A stretch of 40,933 nt of DNA, taken from positions 1-40,933 of IMG/VR virus record IMGVR_UViG_2563366852_000006. One strand, written 5' to 3'. Made by a program: the position numbers and the translations under genes. The first letter of the stretch is position 1; each line of letters starts with the position of its first letter. The DNA comes from a virus. Taxonomy: Duplodnaviria > Heunggongvirae > Uroviricota > Caudoviricetes. Under the pieces are notes generated by a model. That model saw nothing but the letters and a program-made list of their open reading frames with translations. It made no database searches and was not told the DNA's origin. Shown here piece after piece: positions 1 through 8,870 of the stretch.

Positions 1-330
1 TTGCCTCCCCCCCGTTGATGGGTAAAATAGCCGCAATTTTTCGTTTTCAACAAGCGCGGCGCGATGCCGCTTACTCAAGAAGAAAGAATTATGACGTTGT
101 CTCCTTATTTGCAAGAGGTGGCGAAGCGCCGCACTTTTGCCATTATTTCTCACCCCAATAATTAAGCCCAAATTAAAGCTCTTTCACTCTTTCAAAATCC
201 TTTCAGTTAATTGAGATTGAGCTATATAACTCATTTAAATACATTTAGTTATGTGGCTTCTTTAATTGAAAATTCTTTCATGTAACTTTAAATCGATCTG
301 CTTGCTTTCATCAAAAATCTGTACATATGC

Positions 331-347
331 TTGTACATAATGTACAA
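331..347. promoter_or_regulatory. Perfect inverted repeat TTGTACA-TAA-TGTACAA upstream of the integrase; further TGTACA copies at 320-325 and 371-376
   Basis: Read directly from the sequence. The TGTAC half-site recurs in the cI-cro intergenic palindrome at 8002-8019. Confidence 0.35.
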
Positions 348-385
348 AGCAGCAGAGGTGTTTTGCGATTTGTACAAGGTGAGTA

Positions 386-1609
386 ATGGCGCTGTCTGAT
401 GCGTGGTTGCGTTCAGTCGTTGGAAAGGAACGTGATAAGGTTTTGGTTAAATCCGATCGTGATGGTCTGTCTGTCAGAGTATCACCGAAAGGTCGCGTAG
501 TGTTCCAATATCGTTATCAATGGGCAGGGAAAGGTGAGCGTCTTGATATCGGAACTTACCCAGCAACTGGATTAAAAGAGGCCAGAGAAGAAGTTATCCG
601 TCTCCGTGGTGAACTCGAGTCAAACCGTAATCCACGATTGGTCAAGCAGGCTGAAAAACGAAAAGCTACTGAAGCCATGACGGTAGAGTCTGTGATCCGT
701 GCCTGGTATGAAGCATATTGTGTAAAAAATAAAAAAGGCTCTGAACAGATACTCCGCTCGTTTGAGCTGCACCTGTTCTCTAAAATCGGGAATATCCCTC
801 ACGATGCAGCTACATTGCATGATTGGTTAGAAGTCCTGGAGCCTCTTAGCACTAAGACTCCAGCAATAGCAGACCGATTGCTAATTAACGCAAAGCAGGC
901 CCATGTCTGGGCGTATAAGAGAAAGCTCATTGAAACTCGCCCGCTGTCGGATATCACGGGTAAAGATATGGATATCCGTAAAGGTCAGAAGAAACGGTTT
1001 CTGACACATGATGAAATTAAAATCCTTTATGCTGCGATCGATGGTTCTCGAATGGTTCCTAAATACCGGGCCTTCATTAAACTATTGCTGCATTTTGGCT
1101 GCCGTAGTTCAGAGCTAATTACCGCCAGGGTGGACGATTTTGATTTCATTAATAAAGTATGGACTGTACCACCAGAACGACATAAGACTGGGGAGATAAC
1201 GGGCGAACCGCTAAAGCGGCCCATTATTGAACCGGTTGAAGAGCTTATAAAGTACGCTATTTCTATGAACAATGGTTCCGATATGCTTTTTACTAAGGAA
1301 GGAAGCAGGGAACCCGTTGGTCGGACATCATTGCAGTCGCTGCCTTACAATTTAATGCAGTATGCATGGCGGCGTTTGGGGTATCAATTCCCTCATTGGT
1401 CTCTGCATGATTTGAGGCGAACAGCACGAACAAACTTTTCTGATCTTACTGCGCCTCATATCGCAGAAATAATGCTCGGTCATAAACTGCCGGGGGTATG
1501 GCAAGTTTATGACAAGAGTGATTATTTAGAAGAACAGCGTAAAGCCTACCAGGCATGGTGGGAGAGAGTTGAATCGATTGTTACTTGTTCTGGTTCAGAC
1601 ACCAACTGA
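386..1609 (+). CDS. int: Tyrosine recombinase (phage integrase)
   Basis: 407 aa ORF with an N-terminal arm-binding-type region and a C-terminal catalytic region containing HDLRRTARTN and a downstream Tyr (VYDKSDYL); sits at the prophage edge next to an AT-rich putative att region. Confidence 0.85.
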   Translation: MALSDAWLRSVVGKERDKVLVKSDRDGLSVRVSPKGRVVFQYRYQWAGKGERLDIGTYPATGLKEAREEVIRLRGELESNRNPRLVKQAEKRKATEAMTVESVIRAWYEAYCVKNKKGSEQILRSFELHLFSKIGNIPHDAATLHDWLEVLEPLSTKTPAIADRLLINAKQAHVWAYKRKLIETRPLSDITGKDMDIRKGQKKRFLTHDEIKILYAAIDGSRMVPKYRAFIKLLLHFGCRSSELITARVDDFDFINKVWTVPPERHKTGEITGEPLKRPIIEPVEELIKYAISMNNGSDMLFTKEGSREPVGRTSLQSLPYNLMQYAWRRLGYQFPHWSLHDLRRTARTNFSDLTAPHIAEIMLGHKLPGVWQVYDKSDYLEEQRKAYQAWWERVESIVTCSGSDTN

Positions 1610-1781
1610 CAGTTTGCATATTTTGAACGCAATAAAATATGACAGTCCGCTTTGAGCGAGGAGCGGATATATGATGTTTAGAAAACGCGCGATTTGCAGT
1701 TAAGCAATCTAAGTTACTGATGTACTATACTGGAACTGCTGGCCAGTTTGTGTTGAACACCATCATTATCACAATAAGGAA

Positions 1782-3035
1782 ATGAAAGTTGAAATGAATA
1801 CTAAACTTTTGGCCTATTTAAACAATGAGTTACATGGAGTGTGGGTAGATAGTGAAAATCGTAATATCCACATAATACTTAAATCAAGCCTTCCTATAAT
1901 TAAATCCGTCTGGTCAGGAGCACCTATCCACTTTTTGGTAGGTTTATCTACTAAAAATATACTAGTGATTGGGATGTTGATTGAAGATAATGTCGATAAT
2001 CCATTTTTACTAGCCTATCCACCAAGAGAGGCAGATGAAATTAAAGGGCTGGATTTGTTATTGTCAGGCGCTTATGATGGTATTCTATTATCATTTTTTG
2101 ACTCGCATACAATGCGTGTTATGGACCTGAAAATAAAAGTTTCGGAAAATTTACCGTGTGAATGTTTAAAAAAATTTTGTGCTAATTCATATTCTCTCAA
2201 TTCAGGATTTAGGGAAGGTAATGAAGCAATGGATGAATTCTGCAACAATGCTTTGACTGGTAACGAGAAAATAATTAGTCTGCCACTAAGTGTAATCGAT
2301 AAAAAATCTTACCTAGCAAGTGTTCATGAACCAAACGATACCGTATTAACATATGAATTTAGCGTCAGTGAAAACGGCTCTGAGGGATATGAGCAGGAAG
2401 CTCTTATATACCATGCTTTGCGGCAGGTCTTTTCAACGGAGGAAGTGTTTTTTTCTCCAGATATTATTGAGGGTAATAAAAAAAGAGAACTAGTTGATAT
2501 TCTTATTGTAGAAAATGACTATGTATTATCTATACAGTCTAAAGCATCATCTTTGATTGAAATGGGTTTGAAATCTCATGAAAAGCTTTGTAGCATGTAT
2601 AAGAAAAAAGCATTGCAAGGGATCGATCAGGTTAAAGGCGTTATCCCAATTCTAAATAATGATGTGGTTATTAATTATGACGGGAGGGAATGCTTAATAA
2701 AGCGCAGAAAGGGTATTTATCATTTAGTGATAATCTCAGATCTTGTTTTAGAGAAAGAAGGTGCTGAAAAGATTTATAACGAAATTAGCAACCTTAAAGA
2801 GTCAAAAGGGGCGAAAGTTTTAGTTATGAGCCTTGAAGGTCTTGTAAATTTTATAAGACTATCAAGATTAAATAAAAGAATGTTTTGGGCAATGCTGGAG
2901 GCTAAATACAAGTTCAGCATAAAAAACCGTACAATTTTAATTAGAGATATCGACTCTAGCCAAGAGAATAATCTACCATTACTTGCCACTGATCAATACC
3001 TATCACTTCTTCGAGGTACGGGAAAATTAAAATAA
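1782..3035 (+). CDS. Hypothetical protein, AT-rich cargo gene between integrase and the early operon terminator
   Basis: 417 aa uninterrupted ORF, visibly AT-rich compared with flanking phage genes. RBS AAGGA lies just before the 1782 ATG; an alternative ATG is at 1794. No family recognised by eye; a possible E...PD...QxK-like stretch (EQEAL...SPDIIEG...VLSIQSK) is unverified. Confidence 0.6.
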   Translation: MKVEMNTKLLAYLNNELHGVWVDSENRNIHIILKSSLPIIKSVWSGAPIHFLVGLSTKNILVIGMLIEDNVDNPFLLAYPPREADEIKGLDLLLSGAYDGILLSFFDSHTMRVMDLKIKVSENLPCECLKKFCANSYSLNSGFREGNEAMDEFCNNALTGNEKIISLPLSVIDKKSYLASVHEPNDTVLTYEFSVSENGSEGYEQEALIYHALRQVFSTEEVFFSPDIIEGNKKRELVDILIVENDYVLSIQSKASSLIEMGLKSHEKLCSMYKKKALQGIDQVKGVIPILNNDVVINYDGRECLIKRRKGIYHLVIISDLVLEKEGAEKIYNEISNLKESKGAKVLVMSLEGLVNFIRLSRLNKRMFWAMLEAKYKFSIKNRTILIRDIDSSQENNLPLLATDQYLSLLRGTGKLK

Positions 3036-3220
3036 ATTGTATCAATGATACTGTTGCCACGTATCGAGACTGGCTTATGAACGGAAGGGTTTTCCAGCAG
3101 TTCAGCGACCGGAGCTGCACATCGATGCCGGATTGTGCCTGCAATTATGTACTTGGCTAAGAGGTGCTGCTGGCTCTGGATAGAATAACCCTAACGTCCA
3201 AAGAGCGCGCATTTTCATGT

Positions 3221-3263
3221 AAAAAAATAAATAGCTTGTCTGCTCTTGATACAGAGCAGACAG
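3221..3263 (-). terminator. Rho-independent terminator at the end of the leftward early operon
   Basis: Hairpin TTGTCTGCTC-TTGATACA-GAGCAGACA (3236-3263) followed on the minus strand by a T-run (plus-strand A-run 3221-3229), just downstream of the xis-like gene. Confidence 0.55.
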
Positions 3264-3320
3264 TCAGATCTGTTTGGCTTGTGCCATAGATGTGCCAGCT
3301 CACATTTGAGCTAATGTTTG

Positions 3321-3518
3321 TTACTCAATTACTCCTGCAAACCTGTATATCTTACGTGATGCCCATTTATTTGGGCAGGATTTAATATCAGGATCTGGAA
3401 AATCAGGCCGATATTTCTGACCAGTCCTCCGGTTTACACTGTTCCAGCGAAGCACCGTCGATATTGAAACGCCACAGAATTCGGCGACTTGTTTTGTTGT
3501 CATTAAGTTGTTCATTGT
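3321..3518 (-). CDS. xis: Excisionase / AlpA-family HTH protein
   Basis: Internal start MNNLMTTKQVAEFCGVSISTVLRW is a typical AlpA/Xis HTH. Start re-chosen at 3518 because the track's longer N-terminus overlaps the upstream gene and looks non-coding. Confidence 0.6.
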   Translation of the reverse strand, partial: TMNNLMTTKQVAEFCGVSISTVLRWNSVNRRTGQKYRPDFPDPDIKSCPNKWASRKIYRFAGVIE

Positions 3519-3859
3519 TGACCCTCCTGTGGTTGTGCAGTTGAAAGACTCATGCCAGCGCGTTGTTTCCAGACGACCCAGCCGAGAGCCATATCCCACG
3601 CCATGTACTCGTTATCACCGTTTTTTGCTCTCCGACGATCGACTGTTTTACCGAAACGCTTTTCCATAAATAATTCATAGGCTGCGCGTTCATCTGGCTC
3701 AACTTCCAGAGATGCCAGTGCAATCCGTGCCAGTTCTAAATCATCTTCAAGCTCAGCGCGAATCTCAGCGAATGCACTCTGTGTTAAGGCGAACTCAATG
3801 CTCTGCACTTTATTCCGTGCGCGCTCAAGCAGTGCATGGTAGTTAATTTCGGTTGTCAT
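3512..3859 (-). CDS. Hypothetical phage early protein
   Basis: 115 aa ORF tightly packed in the leftward operon (stop/start overlaps with its neighbours); acidic and helical-looking; no motif recognised. Confidence 0.5.
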   Translation of the reverse strand: MTTEINYHALLERARNKVQSIEFALTQSAFAEIRAELEDDLELARIALASLEVEPDERAAYELFMEKRFGKTVDRRRAKNGDNEYMAWDMALGWVVWKQRAGMSLSTAQPQEGQQ

Positions 3860-4734
3860 ACCCCTACCTCTTCGAATTTTAATTCCAATTGATCACCCCA
3901 GATTTCACATGACTCTGAACACGAGCCGGTATCGAATCGCCTGGCCTGTACCATCGCCTGATACAAATTTCTGTAGTCGCTGTTGGCAGACATTCTGGCA
4001 ATTCCGTCAAGCGTCAGGTGACCACGGTACATAACGTCTTTACCTGTTCTGCGATGACCATCCCTGACGTGTTTGCCTGTAACCAGCTCATTAAAAACTC
4101 GCATCAGACCAGGTTCGTCTTTACATGCAAGCCCCAGCTTTTGCGTTGACTTTTTGATGCAGAAAACACAGTTCCCGAGATGCTCCGGGATTTGCAAATC
4201 AAAAGGTTGTTTTCGCCACCACCGGATAACATCCGACTTATCAAAATCTGACAGTTCGGCAAGATACCGGATGCCCGATTTCGGTTTCAGCCTACGGGGT
4301 TCGTCTGCACGAATACCCAGCCATGTGATGTAATTACCTCGCCCGAAATGGTTATCGCAGTATTTCGTGAAAGGGATGAGTTTTAGCCTGTCAGTACAGA
4401 ACGCGCCACCGATGTATGGCGTGCCGTACTTTTTAACCATGTCCATAAACGGTTTAAGTACCGGCATTCGCGTCTGAATATCCTTTGGCTCCCATTCTGT
4501 ATAACCATTTGGCTGCCCAAGCTCAGGATTGATATCGACCTGCAACACAGTTAGTGGTATGCCCCAGAACTTCACAACCTCCCGAATAAAGCGGTATGTC
4601 AGCGGATGTTCGCAACCGGTATCCATAAAGATGTAGCAGACGTTATTGCCAGCCTTTCTTTGTTCTTCCATCAGGTGAACAAGATATGCGGATGTTCTCC
4701 CGCCAGAAAAACTAACTACATGAGTTATGCACAT
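3856..4734 (-). CDS. PAPS reductase-like PP-loop family protein
   Basis: Contains VSFSGGRTSAYL, an SGGxDS-type PP-loop, near the N-terminus. Start chosen at MCITHVV (4734), which overlaps the upstream HD gene stop by 10 nt; the track's longer start at 4851 is the alternative. Confidence 0.7.
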   Translation of the reverse strand: MCITHVVSFSGGRTSAYLVHLMEEQRKAGNNVCYIFMDTGCEHPLTYRFIREVVKFWGIPLTVLQVDINPELGQPNGYTEWEPKDIQTRMPVLKPFMDMVKKYGTPYIGGAFCTDRLKLIPFTKYCDNHFGRGNYITWLGIRADEPRRLKPKSGIRYLAELSDFDKSDVIRWWRKQPFDLQIPEHLGNCVFCIKKSTQKLGLACKDEPGLMRVFNELVTGKHVRDGHRRTGKDVMYRGHLTLDGIARMSANSDYRNLYQAMVQARRFDTGSCSESCEIWGDQLELKFEEVGV

Positions 4735-5261
4735 TTGCGTAATTCCGATAACTCGTTGAAGCGTTCCATAAACATCCCGTAGGCATGGCCCGGTGCCAGT
4801 GGAATAACTTTGAACATCTCTGTTGCCGGGATACCTTCCAGTACAGGCCATAAAGAGCCATCATCAAGCCCGAGATCACGGCGTTCGGTTGCCAGCATGA
4901 TTAGATCGGCATATTTCACAGGCGTGCTCATAACCGGGGGCAACTCGTATTTCTCACGGATTACTGCATCTATTTTTTCTTCCATCCGTTTATAGTCAGG
5001 AAGAAGGCGTTTCAGTGGTGCGGGGATGTCCTGGCAATACGCTTCTGTTGCATCATGCATTAACGCTTCAAAAGCAAATTCCTGCGGCACCAGCTGGCTG
5101 CAAAGCACCGCATGTTGGGCGACGCTGTAGAAGTGAGAAAGATGACCGGCAAAGCGGCAGATATTTGAAAGGGAAACCGCGATATCGTTAATCACGATGT
5201 CGTCTTTATTTATCCTGTCATAATAAAAATGCTTCCCGGAAAAAGTTTTAATAAATGACAT
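4725..5261 (-). CDS. HD-domain phosphohydrolase (YfdR-like 5'-deoxynucleotidase family)
   Basis: His...HD...D pattern (FAGHLSHF...EALMHDATEAY). Start at MSFIKTF (5261) is preceded by GGAGAACAAA RBS; the upstream ATG at 5288 has no RBS. Confidence 0.65.
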   Translation of the reverse strand: MSFIKTFSGKHFYYDRINKDDIVINDIAVSLSNICRFAGHLSHFYSVAQHAVLCSQLVPQEFAFEALMHDATEAYCQDIPAPLKRLLPDYKRMEEKIDAVIREKYELPPVMSTPVKYADLIMLATERRDLGLDDGSLWPVLEGIPATEMFKVIPLAPGHAYGMFMERFNELSELRKCA

Positions 5262-5388
5262 TTTGTTCTCCACGTATATGCGCTGCACCGCGCTGAATTT
5301 GGGTAAAAGGAAGCCCTCACCATCCGGTGATTATTGAGTTAATTACGTTTCCATAAATGCCCCTGCAGGGGCATTTGCAGTAATGAAA

Positions 5389-6213
5389 TCAGGCGGTGAA
5401 AGTACCAATAAAGGTTTCTACTTTGCTGTCTTTGAATTTCTCAACAAGCAGATCACGAAATTCGTTAGCCATATCTTCCTGCACCGCTTCCAGCTGAATA
5501 ATGCGCAGAACCAGTACAGGACGATCGCCAGTGATAATGCTGAGGCGTAATTTAAACGGACGTTCTTTCAGACCTTCAAACGGAACGCATTTAAATTCAA
5601 ATGCCACTGGCATAATGTCTTTGGTCTTCGCTTCGACAGATTCCATCAGGGAGCGTTTGCCGCTGAAGTCATTATCTTCAAAATCAGCGGTCTGGTTTGC
5701 TTCAATCGTGATTTTACGGATTGCCGCAGCCGCTTTTGTTGCCTGAATGGCGTCACCATTAGCATCAAAGCCCACAAGGTAGTCGGCCCAGTCTTCAATC
5801 CATTCTGCCAGTGATTTCTGGGAGTTACGCTCGCCGTTAACAGACAACAGGGCAGAGAACGGTGCTGTCTTTTTCAGTTTGAGAGTGGCGGTGTTATCTG
5901 CGTGACCTGGTTCATCAATAGTACCCAGGTTAAGCACACTGACGGCACGCATATTATCAGCATCGATAAAGCAGCGGGTGCCTTCATCTGCAAGATCTTT
6001 AGAATAACGGGTAAAGTCATCGATGCTGGCAGTGGAAAGCGCACCACGGAAACGGAAGCGATTTAAATTAAATTTTTCCAGATCATGAATGCGGAAATTC
6101 TCAGGCAATGCCACAGCATCGGCACCAATCTTACTGATAATTTCATTAACACCCTGAGCAGAAATAAGGGCATGGATTTGATTAATTGCGGTTGCGTCTA
6201 AGTTCTGAGACAT
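5389..6213 (-). CDS. DUF2303 / YfdQ-like phage protein
   Basis: 274 aa ORF; size and gene order (120 aa, 274 aa, 178 aa HD) recall the yfdP-yfdQ-yfdR arrangement of E. coli CPS-53. This is from memory, not a search. Confidence 0.5.
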
Positions 6214-6278
6214 AATAAGTCCTCACTATATTAAGATATTCAGTGATGAGATAAATAATCAGTTAATTAAGAACGATA

Positions 6279-6641
6279 TTAATGACCTGCTGCGCGGAGT
6301 TTTCCGTCAGGCTCACCGGCAAGAGTCAGTAATTGTCCCTGGTCTTCCTGCAGAATAGTCAGGCGACCACCGCGATTGACATACATCGGCGTTTCGGTGG
6401 TGTCTTCTTCGGAAATTTTCCCACGGTTAGTCGGGCGAACATATGAGAGTTTGTGTTTGATTTTCACACGGTTCTCATCAAATGGTTCGATTTCCAGGTT
6501 GAGTGAGACCTTACCTTTGGTTTTCGTGTTCATCACACCGGAAGCGACTTCACTGAGAACTGCGCCGATTTTGGTTTCAAATACGCCGCCGTCCAGCTCC
6601 CCGATAAATGCCTGCACATCAGTACTGCGTTCACTAGCCAT
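6279..6641 (-). CDS. Hypothetical early protein (120 aa), first gene of the leftward operon
   Basis: Start re-chosen at MASERST (6641) with GAGGAG RBS upstream; the track's N-terminal extension to 6872 is Cys/Arg-rich and looks non-coding. Confidence 0.55.
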   Translation of the reverse strand: MASERSTDVQAFIGELDGGVFETKIGAVLSEVASGVMNTKTKGKVSLNLEIEPFDENRVKIKHKLSYVRPTNRGKISEEDTTETPMYVNRGGRLTILQEDQGQLLTLAGEPDGKLRAAGH

Positions 6642-6689
6642 TTTGCTGCTCCTCATCATATCGACCCTGCAAGGTCGGTTAGTTTCTCC

Positions 6690-6778
6690 ACAAAACAGAG
6701 AAGAACACCTGCGGTGGCAGCCGCCCGGATGGATTGGGTTATGAGCCCGTCGTCCGATGATGTTCTTCTCTGTTTTGT
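6690..6778. repeat. 18-bp perfect inverted repeat (ACAAAACAGAGAAGAACA / TGTTCTTCTCTGTTTTGT) with a 53-nt GC-rich spacer, in the leader of the leftward operon
   Basis: Arms at 6690-6707 and 6761-6778 are exact reverse complements. The spacer contains a nested GCGG-TGGCAG-CCGC hairpin. No credible ORF covers it. Confidence 0.6.
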
Positions 6779-7236
6779 AAAAAGAGCGGTACCAGCCGGA
6801 AGCAAGTGTACAAACTGGTACCGCCAAAGCAGTGGCTGTTGTGGTGGGGTTGTCACTCAGGCGTATGGTCAACCTGACAATCCGGTGTCCTCAACGGGGA
6901 AAGAGTAACCCCGCCATACTTACCGCCGCGCCATTTCGCGGATTACCACAACGCTGAGAGCACTTAGCCAGTTACGGCACCACACTTTGTCGCGGTTCCA
7001 TAAATGCCCTCATCGTTGCACCCTGGTCTCTTCCCAGGCGTCAAACCGAATCGCCACGCTGGTTAGGCGTCTTATCAGCATCATCATTGACTTGCACATT
7101 CCGGCTACCTGGTTTGTTTGCCCGAGCAAGGAGTGGATTATCCCCTTTAACGTCACCAGACCGCTAACGACGCATGTGCCATACGCCGTGTTACAACCAA
7201 ATTTTGTTTTAATCTTGCCTGTGTTATGTTTCTTTT

Positions 7237-7253
7237 AGATACATTATGTATCT
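7237..7253. promoter_or_regulatory. Palindrome AGATACA-TTA-TGTATCT, candidate operator or promoter element (oL-like position)
   Basis: Perfect inverted repeat in the 670-bp non-coding region between cI and the leftward operon, followed by GGTACATTGTCAAG. Confidence 0.3.
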
Positions 7254-7273
7254 CATGGGTACATTGTCAAGCA

Positions 7274-7297
7274 TAAAAAAACCTGCCGAAGCAGGTT
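7274..7297 (-). terminator. Rho-independent terminator downstream of cI
   Basis: Hairpin ACCTGC-CGAA-GCAGGT (7281-7296) followed on the minus strand by a T-run (plus-strand AAAAAAA 7274-7280), immediately after the cI stop. Confidence 0.6.
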
Positions 7298-7309
7298 CAT
7301 AAATATTGA

Positions 7310-7984
7310 TTAGGCCTTTATTGTGTATCTTCTTGGTTTTCCCGAGAAAATCACTGTACCAATTATAGAGCAATTACCGTTAATCTTAATGTAAGGCTCA
7401 GGCCAGTTTGGGTTTAATGCTTTGAGATAACGCTGTGTTCCATCTTCTATCAACCGCTTGAAGGTGGTTTCGCCTGAATCGTGCATCAATGCAATAACGT
7501 CGTCACCGTGGCAGGCAGGGACTTCAGGATCTACAAAAATCATGTCTCCCGGGCGGTACTCATCAATCATTGAATCACCAATCACCCGCAAGATATAAGT
7601 CATTTCGCCACAGGGTACAGGGCAGGGATAAGTTTCTGCTGTGCTCAAATCAACCTCAGAATAGCCAACTTCTTTCCATGCTCCGGCCTGTACCCATGAT
7701 ATGACAGGGACTAACGTTATTTGTTTGTTAGTAATTGAAACATCAGGTTTTTTTGTGATGTTTGTTGTCTGGTGTTCTTGATCAAGCCATCCGACAGGCA
7801 GGTCGAAACATTTTTCGATGTGCCGTGCCATGCTGTCACCGATATTTTTAGTAGCACCATCTCCCATAAACCTGCTGGTCTGGGTTGGCTCGCGATCAAT
7901 CATGGTGGCAAAGGAAGAATTCCCGCCAACACCATCTCTCAGTTTTCTGGCGTTAGACCGCCGGATGTCATGGACTGTTTTCAT
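7310..7984 (-). CDS. cI: CI-type prophage repressor (LexA-like S24 peptidase domain)
   Basis: C-terminal S24 autoprotease signature (ILRVIGDSM ... TTFKRL); divergent from a cro-like gene across an operator-bearing intergenic region. Confidence 0.85.
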   Translation of the reverse strand: MKTVHDIRRSNARKLRDGVGGNSSFATMIDREPTQTSRFMGDGATKNIGDSMARHIEKCFDLPVGWLDQEHQTTNITKKPDVSITNKQITLVPVISWVQAGAWKEVGYSEVDLSTAETYPCPVPCGEMTYILRVIGDSMIDEYRPGDMIFVDPEVPACHGDDVIALMHDSGETTFKRLIEDGTQRYLKALNPNWPEPYIKINGNCSIIGTVIFSGKPRRYTIKA

Positions 7985-8001
7985 AACGAAATTAAAACCT
8001 T

Positions 8002-8019
8002 TGTACCGATAGGGTACAA
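8002..8019. promoter_or_regulatory. Operator-like palindrome TTGTACC-N4-GGTACAA in the cI-cro intergenic region
   Basis: Inverted repeat between the divergent cI and cro starts; a second partial palindrome TACA-TAT-TGTA overlaps the cro RBS near 8063-8074. Confidence 0.5.
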
Positions 8020-8074
8020 GTATCTTGAAGGTTCATCTCAATCATGTAATATGTATATTGGAGGTACATATTGT

Positions 8075-8275
8075 ATGAAAGCGTATTGGGACTCTTTAAC
8101 CAAAGAACAGCAGGGCGAGTTGGCCGGAAAAGTTGGCTCAACACCAGGCTACTTACGGCTGGTTTTCAATGGTTATAAAAAAGCCAGTTTTGTGCTGGCT
8201 AAAAAACTTGAGCAATGCACGTCAGGTGCAATTACGAAATCTGACTTAAGACCGGATATCTATCCGAAAGATTAA
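8075..8275 (+). CDS. cro: Cro-like HTH regulator (YdaS-type)
   Basis: 66 aa; GGAGG RBS 7 nt upstream of the ATG at 8075; HTH-like LAGKVGSTPGYLRLV and C-terminal ITKSDLRPD. The track ORF from 7772 is antisense to cI and is rejected as the start. Confidence 0.7.
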   Translation: MKAYWDSLTKEQQGELAGKVGSTPGYLRLVFNGYKKASFVLAKKLEQCTSGAITKSDLRPDIYPKD

Positions 8276-8306
8276 CAGAACACCTTCAATTTTTAACCAC
8301 AGAACG

Positions 8307-8870
8307 ATGAGGCTAACCGTGGGTAAGCATCACTGGAAAGTAGAAAAACAGCCTGAGTGGTACGTGAAAGCTGTCAGAAAAACTATCGCGGCGTTGCCGG
8401 GGGGGTACGCTGAAGCTGCTGAGTGGCTGGATGTAACAGAGAACGCTTTATTCAACCGCCTTCGTGCAGATGGCGATCAGATTTTCCCGCTGGGATGGGC
8501 AATGATTTTACAGCGCGCGGCTGGCACTCACTACATTGCGGATGCTGTCGCACAGTCTGCTGGTGGGGTGTTTGTATCGCTTCCTGAAATTGAGGAAGTA
8601 GAGAACGCCGATATAAACCAGCGCCTGCTGGAAGTCATCGAACAGATCGGGAGTTACTCAAAGCAGATTCGTTCGGCAATCGAAGACGGGGTAGTGGAGC
8701 CACACGAGCAGACAGCAATTAATGATGAGTTGTATCTGTCAATTTCGAAGCTCCAGGAGCATGCAGCACTGGTCTACAAAATCTTTTGCGCTCCAGAAAA
8801 GAGTGACGCCCGCGAGTGTGCAGCTCCGGGCGTCGTGGCGTTTTGTGTCTGTGGAGAAACTAACGCATGA
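8307..8870 (+). CDS. CII-like phage regulatory protein (CP76-type), tentative
   Basis: 187 aa directly downstream of cro; HTH-like LDVTENALFNRLR then an acidic helical region. Family call is from memory. Confidence 0.4.
   Translation: MRLTVGKHHWKVEKQPEWYVKAVRKTIAALPGGYAEAAEWLDVTENALFNRLRADGDQIFPLGWAMILQRAAGTHYIADAVAQSAGGVFVSLPEIEEVENADINQRLLEVIEQIGSYSKQIRSAIEDGVVEPHEQTAINDELYLSISKLQEHAALVYKIFCAPEKSDARECAAPGVVAFCVCGETNA

Follow-up and report, generated by a model that had tools for sequence, protein, structure and literature searches.

The left part of the Caudoviricetes sequence IMGVR_UViG_2563366852_000006, of which we analysed the 40,933 nucleotides from position 1 to 40,933 (hereafter the window), raises a simple question: what is the role of the AT-rich orphan gene that has the integrase on one side and, on the other, the terminator of the leftward early operon? 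The gene is self-contained prophage cargo in an exchangeable slot between these two features, and the nature of its product, together with the company that its homologues keep, makes it a good candidate for single-gene anti-phage defence.

The frame, listed at 1782..3035 on the plus strand, encodes 417 amino acids (aa) from its first ATG, and the Prokaryotic Genome Annotation Pipeline (PGAP) annotates this frame, with the ATG at 1794 as its start, as a 413-aa 'hypothetical protein' (WP_016249556.1). The start at 1794 is more likely than that at 1782 because the methionine there opens most homologues, and protein residues are numbered from it throughout. Computed with the gene's own base composition, a run of 413 stop-free codons has a probability of ~7e-16, so that the ORF is not there by chance. 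Its G+C content is 34.0% (0.29 at third codon positions, GC3), against 50% for the whole window and 45–47% for the integrase and for those four leftward genes that were measured. A first-pass annotation, made from the DNA letters and a list of ORFs, had described a long clean ORF of foreign-looking composition, and on both counts the description holds.

The limits of the slot were defined by blastn comparison of window positions 1300–3900 with six related prophages. Backbone homology stops at 1616–1660, just past the integrase stop codon, and returns at 3238–3272, at the terminator hairpin. Apart from the orphan gene, the cassette between these edges has neither an annotated gene nor an ORF that is likely to be coding. 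All six relatives examined carry a different, unrelated gene set at this position: a dGTPase defence gene (PADLOC E 8.7e-105), a 331-aa gene, a pair of 150- and 160-aa genes, a 515-aa gene, a 239-aa gene in phage 2H10 and a pair of 377- and 121-aa genes in PhiR63_1. Since the five sets other than the dGTPase are unannotated and without PADLOC match, the slot may hold several further uncharacterised systems. Such variable content between conserved flanks is that of a prophage cargo hotspot, and the comparison bears out the earlier proposal that the position next to the integrase is a recurrent cargo site. The predicted terminator of the convergent leftward operon (placed at 3221–3263) likewise stands: read on the minus strand, a 10-bp G+C-containing stem (3262..3237) is followed by AGCUAUUUAUUUUUUU, a U-run in the RNA, and the 96 nucleotides around the hairpin fold at −29.2 kcal/mol (z = −3.1 versus shuffled sequences). 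It faces the leftward operon and, lying downstream of the orphan gene, is oriented for the opposite strand. Among 5,426 complete Escherichia coli genomes, 870 match part of window positions 900–4000, mostly in the flanks; the cassette occurs in 75 of these ~870, always in this context and at ≥99% identity, and all 75 cover at least 80% of a 1451-bp query containing the gene at an identity of at least 99%. A small hairpin (TCCGCT / AGCGGA, 1646–1667, in region 1616–1672) also lies just past the integrase stop. The left homology edge falls at 1651–1660 in five of the six relatives and at 1616 in the sixth, that is, mostly within or just before the loop of this hairpin; with the right edge at the terminator, each cassette junction thus lies at a hairpin.

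The C-terminal half of the protein provides the clearest clue about its activity. A structure model built on 61 sequences was confident (predicted local distance difference test, pLDDT, 90.6; predicted template-modelling score, pTM, 0.89) and showed the alpha-beta-beta-beta-alpha-beta core of the PD-(D/E)xK fold. Helix 196–210 and strands 229–232, 236–239 and 243–250 carry the catalytic residues in the canonical order, with E202 on the helix, D235 by the second core strand and Q248 and K250 on the third. The corresponding motif (an acid on strand 2, (D/E)xK on strand 3 and a glutamate on helix 1) is present in a variant form: the family as a whole shows a textbook D...ExK motif (consensus RELTDILA...LIESKAL), and the clade of the window reads RELVDILIVENDYVLSIQSK, with Q248 in place of the glutamate. 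Eight residues are invariant in the 61-member alignment (K30, G198, E202, P222, E232, D235, K250 and Q279). The best structural matches of the model were the cleavage domains of restriction endonucleases, namely the small subunit of R.BspD6I (score 12.9), N.BspD6I (12.6) and FokI (12.3), followed in the same listing by HindIII (10.0), Can2 (8.7), Upx (8.6), McrC (8.0), NucC (7.3) and SduA (7.2); Foldseek agreed with the restriction-endonuclease matches. Residues 191–413 are basic (isoelectric point, pI, 8.68). What had been noticed at first sight as a weak E...PD...QxK-like stretch, possibly indicative of a PD-(D/E)xK nuclease, is therefore upheld in both fold and motif by the invariance of E202, D235 and K250 in 61 of 61 sequences and by the structural matches. 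We conclude from alignment and model that the C-terminal domain is a predicted FokI/BspD6I-type PD-(D/E)xK nuclease with a complete E-D-(Q)xK catalytic set.

The N-terminal domain was also predicted with confidence in the model, and its comparison with PDB structures returned no matching solved structure. With a pI of 5.06 it is acidic, and a separate set of residues is conserved in it (W17, K30, K37, D65, P70 and, in most relatives, E104). The possibility that it represents a second nuclease was rejected, as the alignment of the N- and C-terminal profiles with hhalign had a probability of 0.9% and there was no detectable internal duplication. The protein is soluble, with no transmembrane segment and no secretion-associated N-terminal domain.

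Sequence searches placed the protein in a family without giving it a name. It had no match in Pfam, NCBIfam or PADLOC at E ≤ 10 and no meaningful match among PDB sequences, so that the initial verdict of no recognisable family was correct for these four collections; it falls only in PHROG 30399, to which no function is assigned. In its 348-member cluster every source name listed is 'hypothetical protein', and WP_016249556.1 was not found in the literature searched. A word-indexed search retrieved 13 close relatives, of which every one that bears a source name comes from Enterobacterales, and an exhaustive profile search of 1.8 billion representatives yielded 225 matches at E ≤ 0.001 (225 clusters at 50% identity), most of them about 400 aa long and aligned end to end. 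Repeating the homologue search from the family alignment brought in just three further sequences, and the clade alignment found a single genome, of Kluyvera, among species-representative genomes. Judging from these alignments, the protein belongs to a real two-domain family, rare but widely spread. One match was discarded as a false positive, a 2283-aa secreted CHU_C repeat protein (P0055; E 1.5e-16 with the family profile) whose score was the sum of 21–22 weak repeat matches, each of only 0.4–10 bits against the profile. Homology to a housekeeping enzyme, which the first-pass annotation had named as grounds for abandoning a role in phage–host conflict, was looked for and did not hold: a phmmer match of residues 49–94 (46 residues) to malic enzyme/malate dehydrogenase at E 0.0068 rose to E 1.3 with the clade profile and disappeared with the deeper family profile, and we treated it as due to chance.

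We examined about ten independent genomic contexts of the homologues. In a P2-like prophage the gene lies between baseplate/tail genes and adjoins a DUF6602/PD-DExK gene; at the end of a Morganella lambdoid prophage the order is integrase, PD-T7-1 (E 1.6e-156) and the homologue; in Kluyvera it adjoins PDC-S11 (E 8.6e-107); and on a Yersinia plasmid it stands beside Mrr_cat, PLDc_2 and HEPN genes. Relatives at 22% identity occur in metagenomic islands with RteC genes, flanked by type I restriction-modification (RM), AbiEii, SMODS/SLATT/Nmad2, PLDc_2, Mrr_cat, HNH and HipA genes. Other homologues are found in Serratia chromosomal islets, one of them flanked by insertion sequence (IS) elements and a Fic/Phd pair, and in IMG/VR prophages, located in the early region or, alternatively, with tail genes on one side and a lambda-type integrase on the other. 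The 110-kb IncFIB plasmid pCFSAN006211 of Salmonella Senftenberg, which looks like a phage-plasmid because of its Rha, phage Dam-like methylase, thymidylate synthase and DHFR genes, has a homologue of 90.6% identity beside an IS110 transposase (L035:7001-8245; L numbers are our handles for the loci compared). Listed without a background rate, the known defence genes among neighbours and alternative slot occupants are PD-T7-1, PDC-S11, dGTPase and a HEC-04-like ATPase, together with the type I RM, AbiEii, SMODS/SLATT, PLDc_2, Mrr_cat and HipA genes of the islands.

No neighbour recurred across the contexts examined. The candidates for a conserved partner were rejected, as the Mrr_cat neighbours do not align with each other, nor do the 438-aa DUF6602 neighbour and a 432-aa neighbour in Serratia. 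With no recurring neighbour and unalignable candidates, the gene behaves as an autonomous module moving between mobile-element hotspots. We did observe an Mrr_cat gene directly downstream of a homologue in two unrelated contexts, the Yersinia plasmid and a defence island of metagenomic origin, in which the two ORFs have 4 bp in common (L006:9474-10355 and L012:9212-10177, the latter also in L013; a truncated 77-aa remnant is at L008:9212-9445). BLASTP gave no alignment between these two Mrr_cat proteins, so this association arose twice or by chance. Two IMG/VR prophages have extra cargo near homologues of 91–92% identity (L034:9786-13663, minus strand; L031:2189-5035, plus strand): in one, 529-aa AAA_22 and 763-aa CSD/TPR/ATPase proteins are encoded immediately beside the homologue, and in another a HEC-04/OLD-like ATPase and a C5 cytosine methylase are encoded ~3 kb upstream.

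How does the protein compare with known systems? FokI, the R.BspD6I small subunit and N.BspD6I have the closest cleavage-domain fold but share only 11–12% sequence identity with it, and it has no detectable FokI-like DNA-recognition domain; its N-terminal domain is acidic. It does not correspond to a type II or IIS RM system either: the cassette has one gene, and in the other contexts no methyltransferase is conserved next to it. In the way it would work, the protein is most like Shedu (SduA, DUF4263), an immune nuclease that consists of one protein and whose N-terminal sensor domains vary (bioRxiv 10.1101/2023.08.10.552793), and like further nuclease effectors of the single-protein type, yet it lacks the features that define them. 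It has no DUF4263 match in Pfam and matches no PADLOC model (PADLOC is expected to include Shedu), its nuclease domain is structurally nearer to FokI/BspD6I than to SduA, and its N-terminal domain is conserved across the family whereas those of Shedu are variable (swapped). NERD (PF08378), frequent in defence islands, has the E...D...ExK layout in common with the family and gave weak matches in 17 of the 61 members (best E 2e-4), but the orphan protein itself showed no NERD match even at E 10. Known NERD defence proteins differ from it in architecture: ZwsA is larger, with VHS, DUF647, NERD and S4 domains (bioRxiv 10.64898/2026.04.06.716636), and DS-26 of DefensePredictor has 532 aa (PMC13092281). 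Affiliation to the Mrr-type IV enzymes found no support in an Mrr_cat or Mrr_cat_2 match, or in a detectable Mrr-like winged-helix N-terminal domain. Upx, with 1212 aa and two nuclease domains, is also dissimilar. In the case of the signal-activated effector nucleases Can2, Card1, NucC and Cap4, only the nuclease half of the orphan protein appears to align (130–150 residues); the protein matches no Pfam model, hence no CARF or SAVED, and the window has no cyclase or CRISPR genes. The CBASS-like genes (cyclic-oligonucleotide-based anti-phage signalling system) beside distant homologues already have their own effectors.

We lean towards the view that the gene encodes a single-protein nuclease directed against phages or other mobile elements and autoinhibited by its N-terminal domain, the role in defence being suggested by the genomic context. 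The protein would be made in the lysogen, where the N-terminal domain would keep an unspecific cleavage domain inactive until the arrival of an infection cue, perhaps a protein of the phage, a particular form of DNA or a DNA modification. FokI-type cleavage domains need oligomerisation, and release from inhibition would probably proceed via this step. The active enzyme would then cut invading or replicating DNA, and neither a methyltransferase, an antitoxin nor any other partner would be required. More tentatively, the protein might be the founder of a new family of immune nucleases that act autonomously and extend from Enterobacterales to Bacteroidota-type elements, in which an acidic N-terminal sensor would unleash a FokI-type domain.

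Several observations weigh against a defence nuclease of this kind. The sensor or regulatory role of the N-terminal domain is presumed, being a role that we infer. A tblastn search of 50,697 INPHARED phage records gave no match, so that no isolated phage there carries the gene; neither the accession nor fragments of the sequence appeared in those parts of the DefensePredictor supplement that were considered; PADLOC has no model that matches the protein; and the promoter search found no sigma-70 consensus promoter upstream of the gene. The enterobacterial clade also departs from the family consensus at four positions, E104→S, E248→Q, D346→S and R371→K (window codons 2103–2105, 2535–2537, 2829–2831 and 2904–2906), three of which lose an acidic residue. 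Nuclease activity could therefore be altered in this clade, whose remodelled site (E248Q, with E104 and D346 lost) could change metal use or make a nickase or a more tightly gated form. Moreover, some copies are damaged: that of Kluyvera has a frameshift near codon 384 (L025:8001-9243), that of a Klebsiella plasmid is cut by IS5 at residue 273 (L036:6001-6834), and a truncated 268-aa E. coli variant (P0165) occurs on 26 contigs. Patchy loss is common among accessory defence genes; the decayed copies are nonetheless a caution.

Taken to the extreme, Q248, the three other lost residues and the truncated, frameshifted and IS-disrupted copies would agree with a catalytically dead remnant that hitch-hikes without function in this clade. 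We consider this the least plausible explanation, and a very improbable one, since Q248 is present without exception in the 13 members of the clade, even at an identity as low as 54%, and the ratio of nonsynonymous to synonymous substitution rates (dN/dS) is 0.26–0.29 against intact homologues of 85–92% aa identity. These values indicate that the family is under purifying selection and, with the invariance of Q248, that the variant motif is maintained rather than decaying; full-length ORFs are retained in Escherichia, Serratia, Morganella, Yersinia and Salmonella elements. It is also improbable, if slightly less so, that the protein acts as a toxin, be it a nuclease effector of the interbacterial or contact-dependent kind or the toxic component of an addiction module. 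On the Yersinia plasmid the homologue has a PAAR gene 2.5 kb upstream of it, and the Fic/Phd toxin-antitoxin pair is nearby in Serratia fonticola, but the cassette has no immunity or antitoxin gene, no small neighbour is conserved in any examined context, transmembrane and secretion-associated segments are absent from the protein, and 75 genomes stably maintain the gene at full length.

Two other explanations deserve more weight, although we regard both as unlikely. Within defence, the chief competitor is a type IV-like restriction endonuclease that depends on modification: its N-terminal domain would recognise a modified base, and modified phage DNA would be cut directly, with no trigger or abortive step. 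The nuclease is indeed solitary, without a methyltransferase beside it in the window or conserved in other contexts; the D...QxK form of the motif has been reported for Mrr; and Mrr_cat genes lie directly downstream of homologues in the two contexts mentioned above, once with the 4-bp overlap. However, an acidic pI of 5.06 is unusual for a DNA reader, the N-terminal domain has no known reader fold, and no hidden Markov model match to Mrr_cat was obtained. The prophage also encodes its own N6-adenine methyltransferase (11199–11885) and its host is Dam/Dcm-methylated, so any target would have to be a non-host modification. Less probable again is an enzyme serving the element itself rather than defence, that is, a homing or selfish endonuclease spreading its own cassette, or a recombination or repair nuclease. 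The variety of mobile elements and slots occupied (integrase-proximal, P2-like, lambdoid early, phage-plasmid beside IS110 and IS-flanked islet) is compatible with it, as is an AT-rich composition unlike that of every host backbone examined. Nevertheless, there is no synteny with recombination or replication genes, the terminator in the window separates the gene from the phage early operon, which runs in the opposite orientation, and recognised defence genes appear enriched among the neighbours. The cassette junctions coincide with backbone features common to unrelated cargo, which fits general hotspot recombination better than site-specific homing.

If the protein proves protective, a compact immune nuclease (a 1.24-kb gene for 413 aa) with an unrecognised sensor domain would join the defence repertoire of E. 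coli, and the slot between integrase and terminator of the prophages inserted between yjjG and prfC would be marked as a defined defence hotspot. These prophages include Stx-converting phages with the same integrase, and the unannotated occupants of the slot could then be mined. Fourteen PD-(D/E)xK nuclease proteins are already among the defence systems newly validated with DefensePredictor (PMC13092281); with such nucleases common in defence, the novelty would lie in the family and its sensor domain and not in the principle. If the protein is indeed a FokI-type cleavage domain under the control of a new regulatory domain, it would be of interest for practical use too, as a switchable nuclease module.

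Table 1 Features of the orphan gene, its slot and its flanks (window coordinates unless a locus handle is given; residues numbered from the ATG at 1794).
Feature	Coordinates	Strand	Description
Tyrosine integrase	386..1609	+	PGAP 'tyrosine-type recombinase/integrase'; conserved left flank of slot
Variable cargo cassette	about 1661..3237		~1.58 kb, one gene; edges set by loss and return of backbone homology
Orphan CDS (coding sequence)	1794..3035	+	413 aa; alternative upstream ATG at 1782 gives 417 aa
N-terminal family-specific domain	1794..2369	+	aa 1-192, predicted alpha/beta, built from beta-hairpins
C-terminal PD-(D/E)xK nuclease domain (predicted)	2370..2951	+	aa 193-386, closest to FokI/BspD6I-type cleavage domain
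Catalytic motif codons	2397..2543	+	EGYEQE...RELVDILIVENDYVLSIQSK
E202	2397-2399	+	invariant, 61/61
E232	2487-2489	+	invariant, 61/61
D235	2496-2498	+	invariant, 61/61
Q248	2535-2537	+	column: E 54, Q 5, S 2 of 61
K250	2541-2543	+	invariant, 61/61
Intrinsic-terminator-like hairpin and T-run ending leftward early operon	3221..3262	-	conserved backbone, right cassette edge
Small helix-turn-helix (excisionase-like) ORF, last gene of leftward operon	3321..3599	-	conserved right flank
Alternative slot occupants	L020:2582-3808, L021:2577-3572, L022:2311-3287, L023:2382-3929, L002:3282-4001, L003:1627-3216		

As for the wider setting, the left part of the window matches an E. coli prophage inserted between yjjG and prfC. 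Positions 1700–3150 are 100% identical to strain FAM21845 and one other genome, and the FAM21845 annotation agrees with window coordinates 386–8275. The prophage of this strain combines an early region of lambdoid type with an HK97-type head and a contractile tail; the right end of the window (36–40.9 kb) is unlike it and breaks off inside tail-fibre genes. The integrase and the leftward genes of the window, but not the orphan gene, also occur in Stx-converting phages and in phages 2H10 and PhiR63_1. The integrase is 86–96% identical in the related prophages, with homology reaching 1616–1660, and their equivalents of the small helix-turn-helix ORF are annotated as 'DNA-binding protein' or 'helix-turn-helix domain-containing protein'. 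An Rfam scan of window positions 1–8500 found nothing credible. At its attR end the FAM21845 prophage has a second orphan gene, absent from the window, which encodes 437 aa on the minus strand (L024:38168-39481), adjoins a DinI-like pseudogene and has no Pfam or PADLOC match. Finally, the N6-adenine methyltransferase of the window's prophage (11199–11885, plus strand) has an NPPY motif and belongs to the rightward early operon; it would be relevant if the orphan nuclease were methylation-sensitive.

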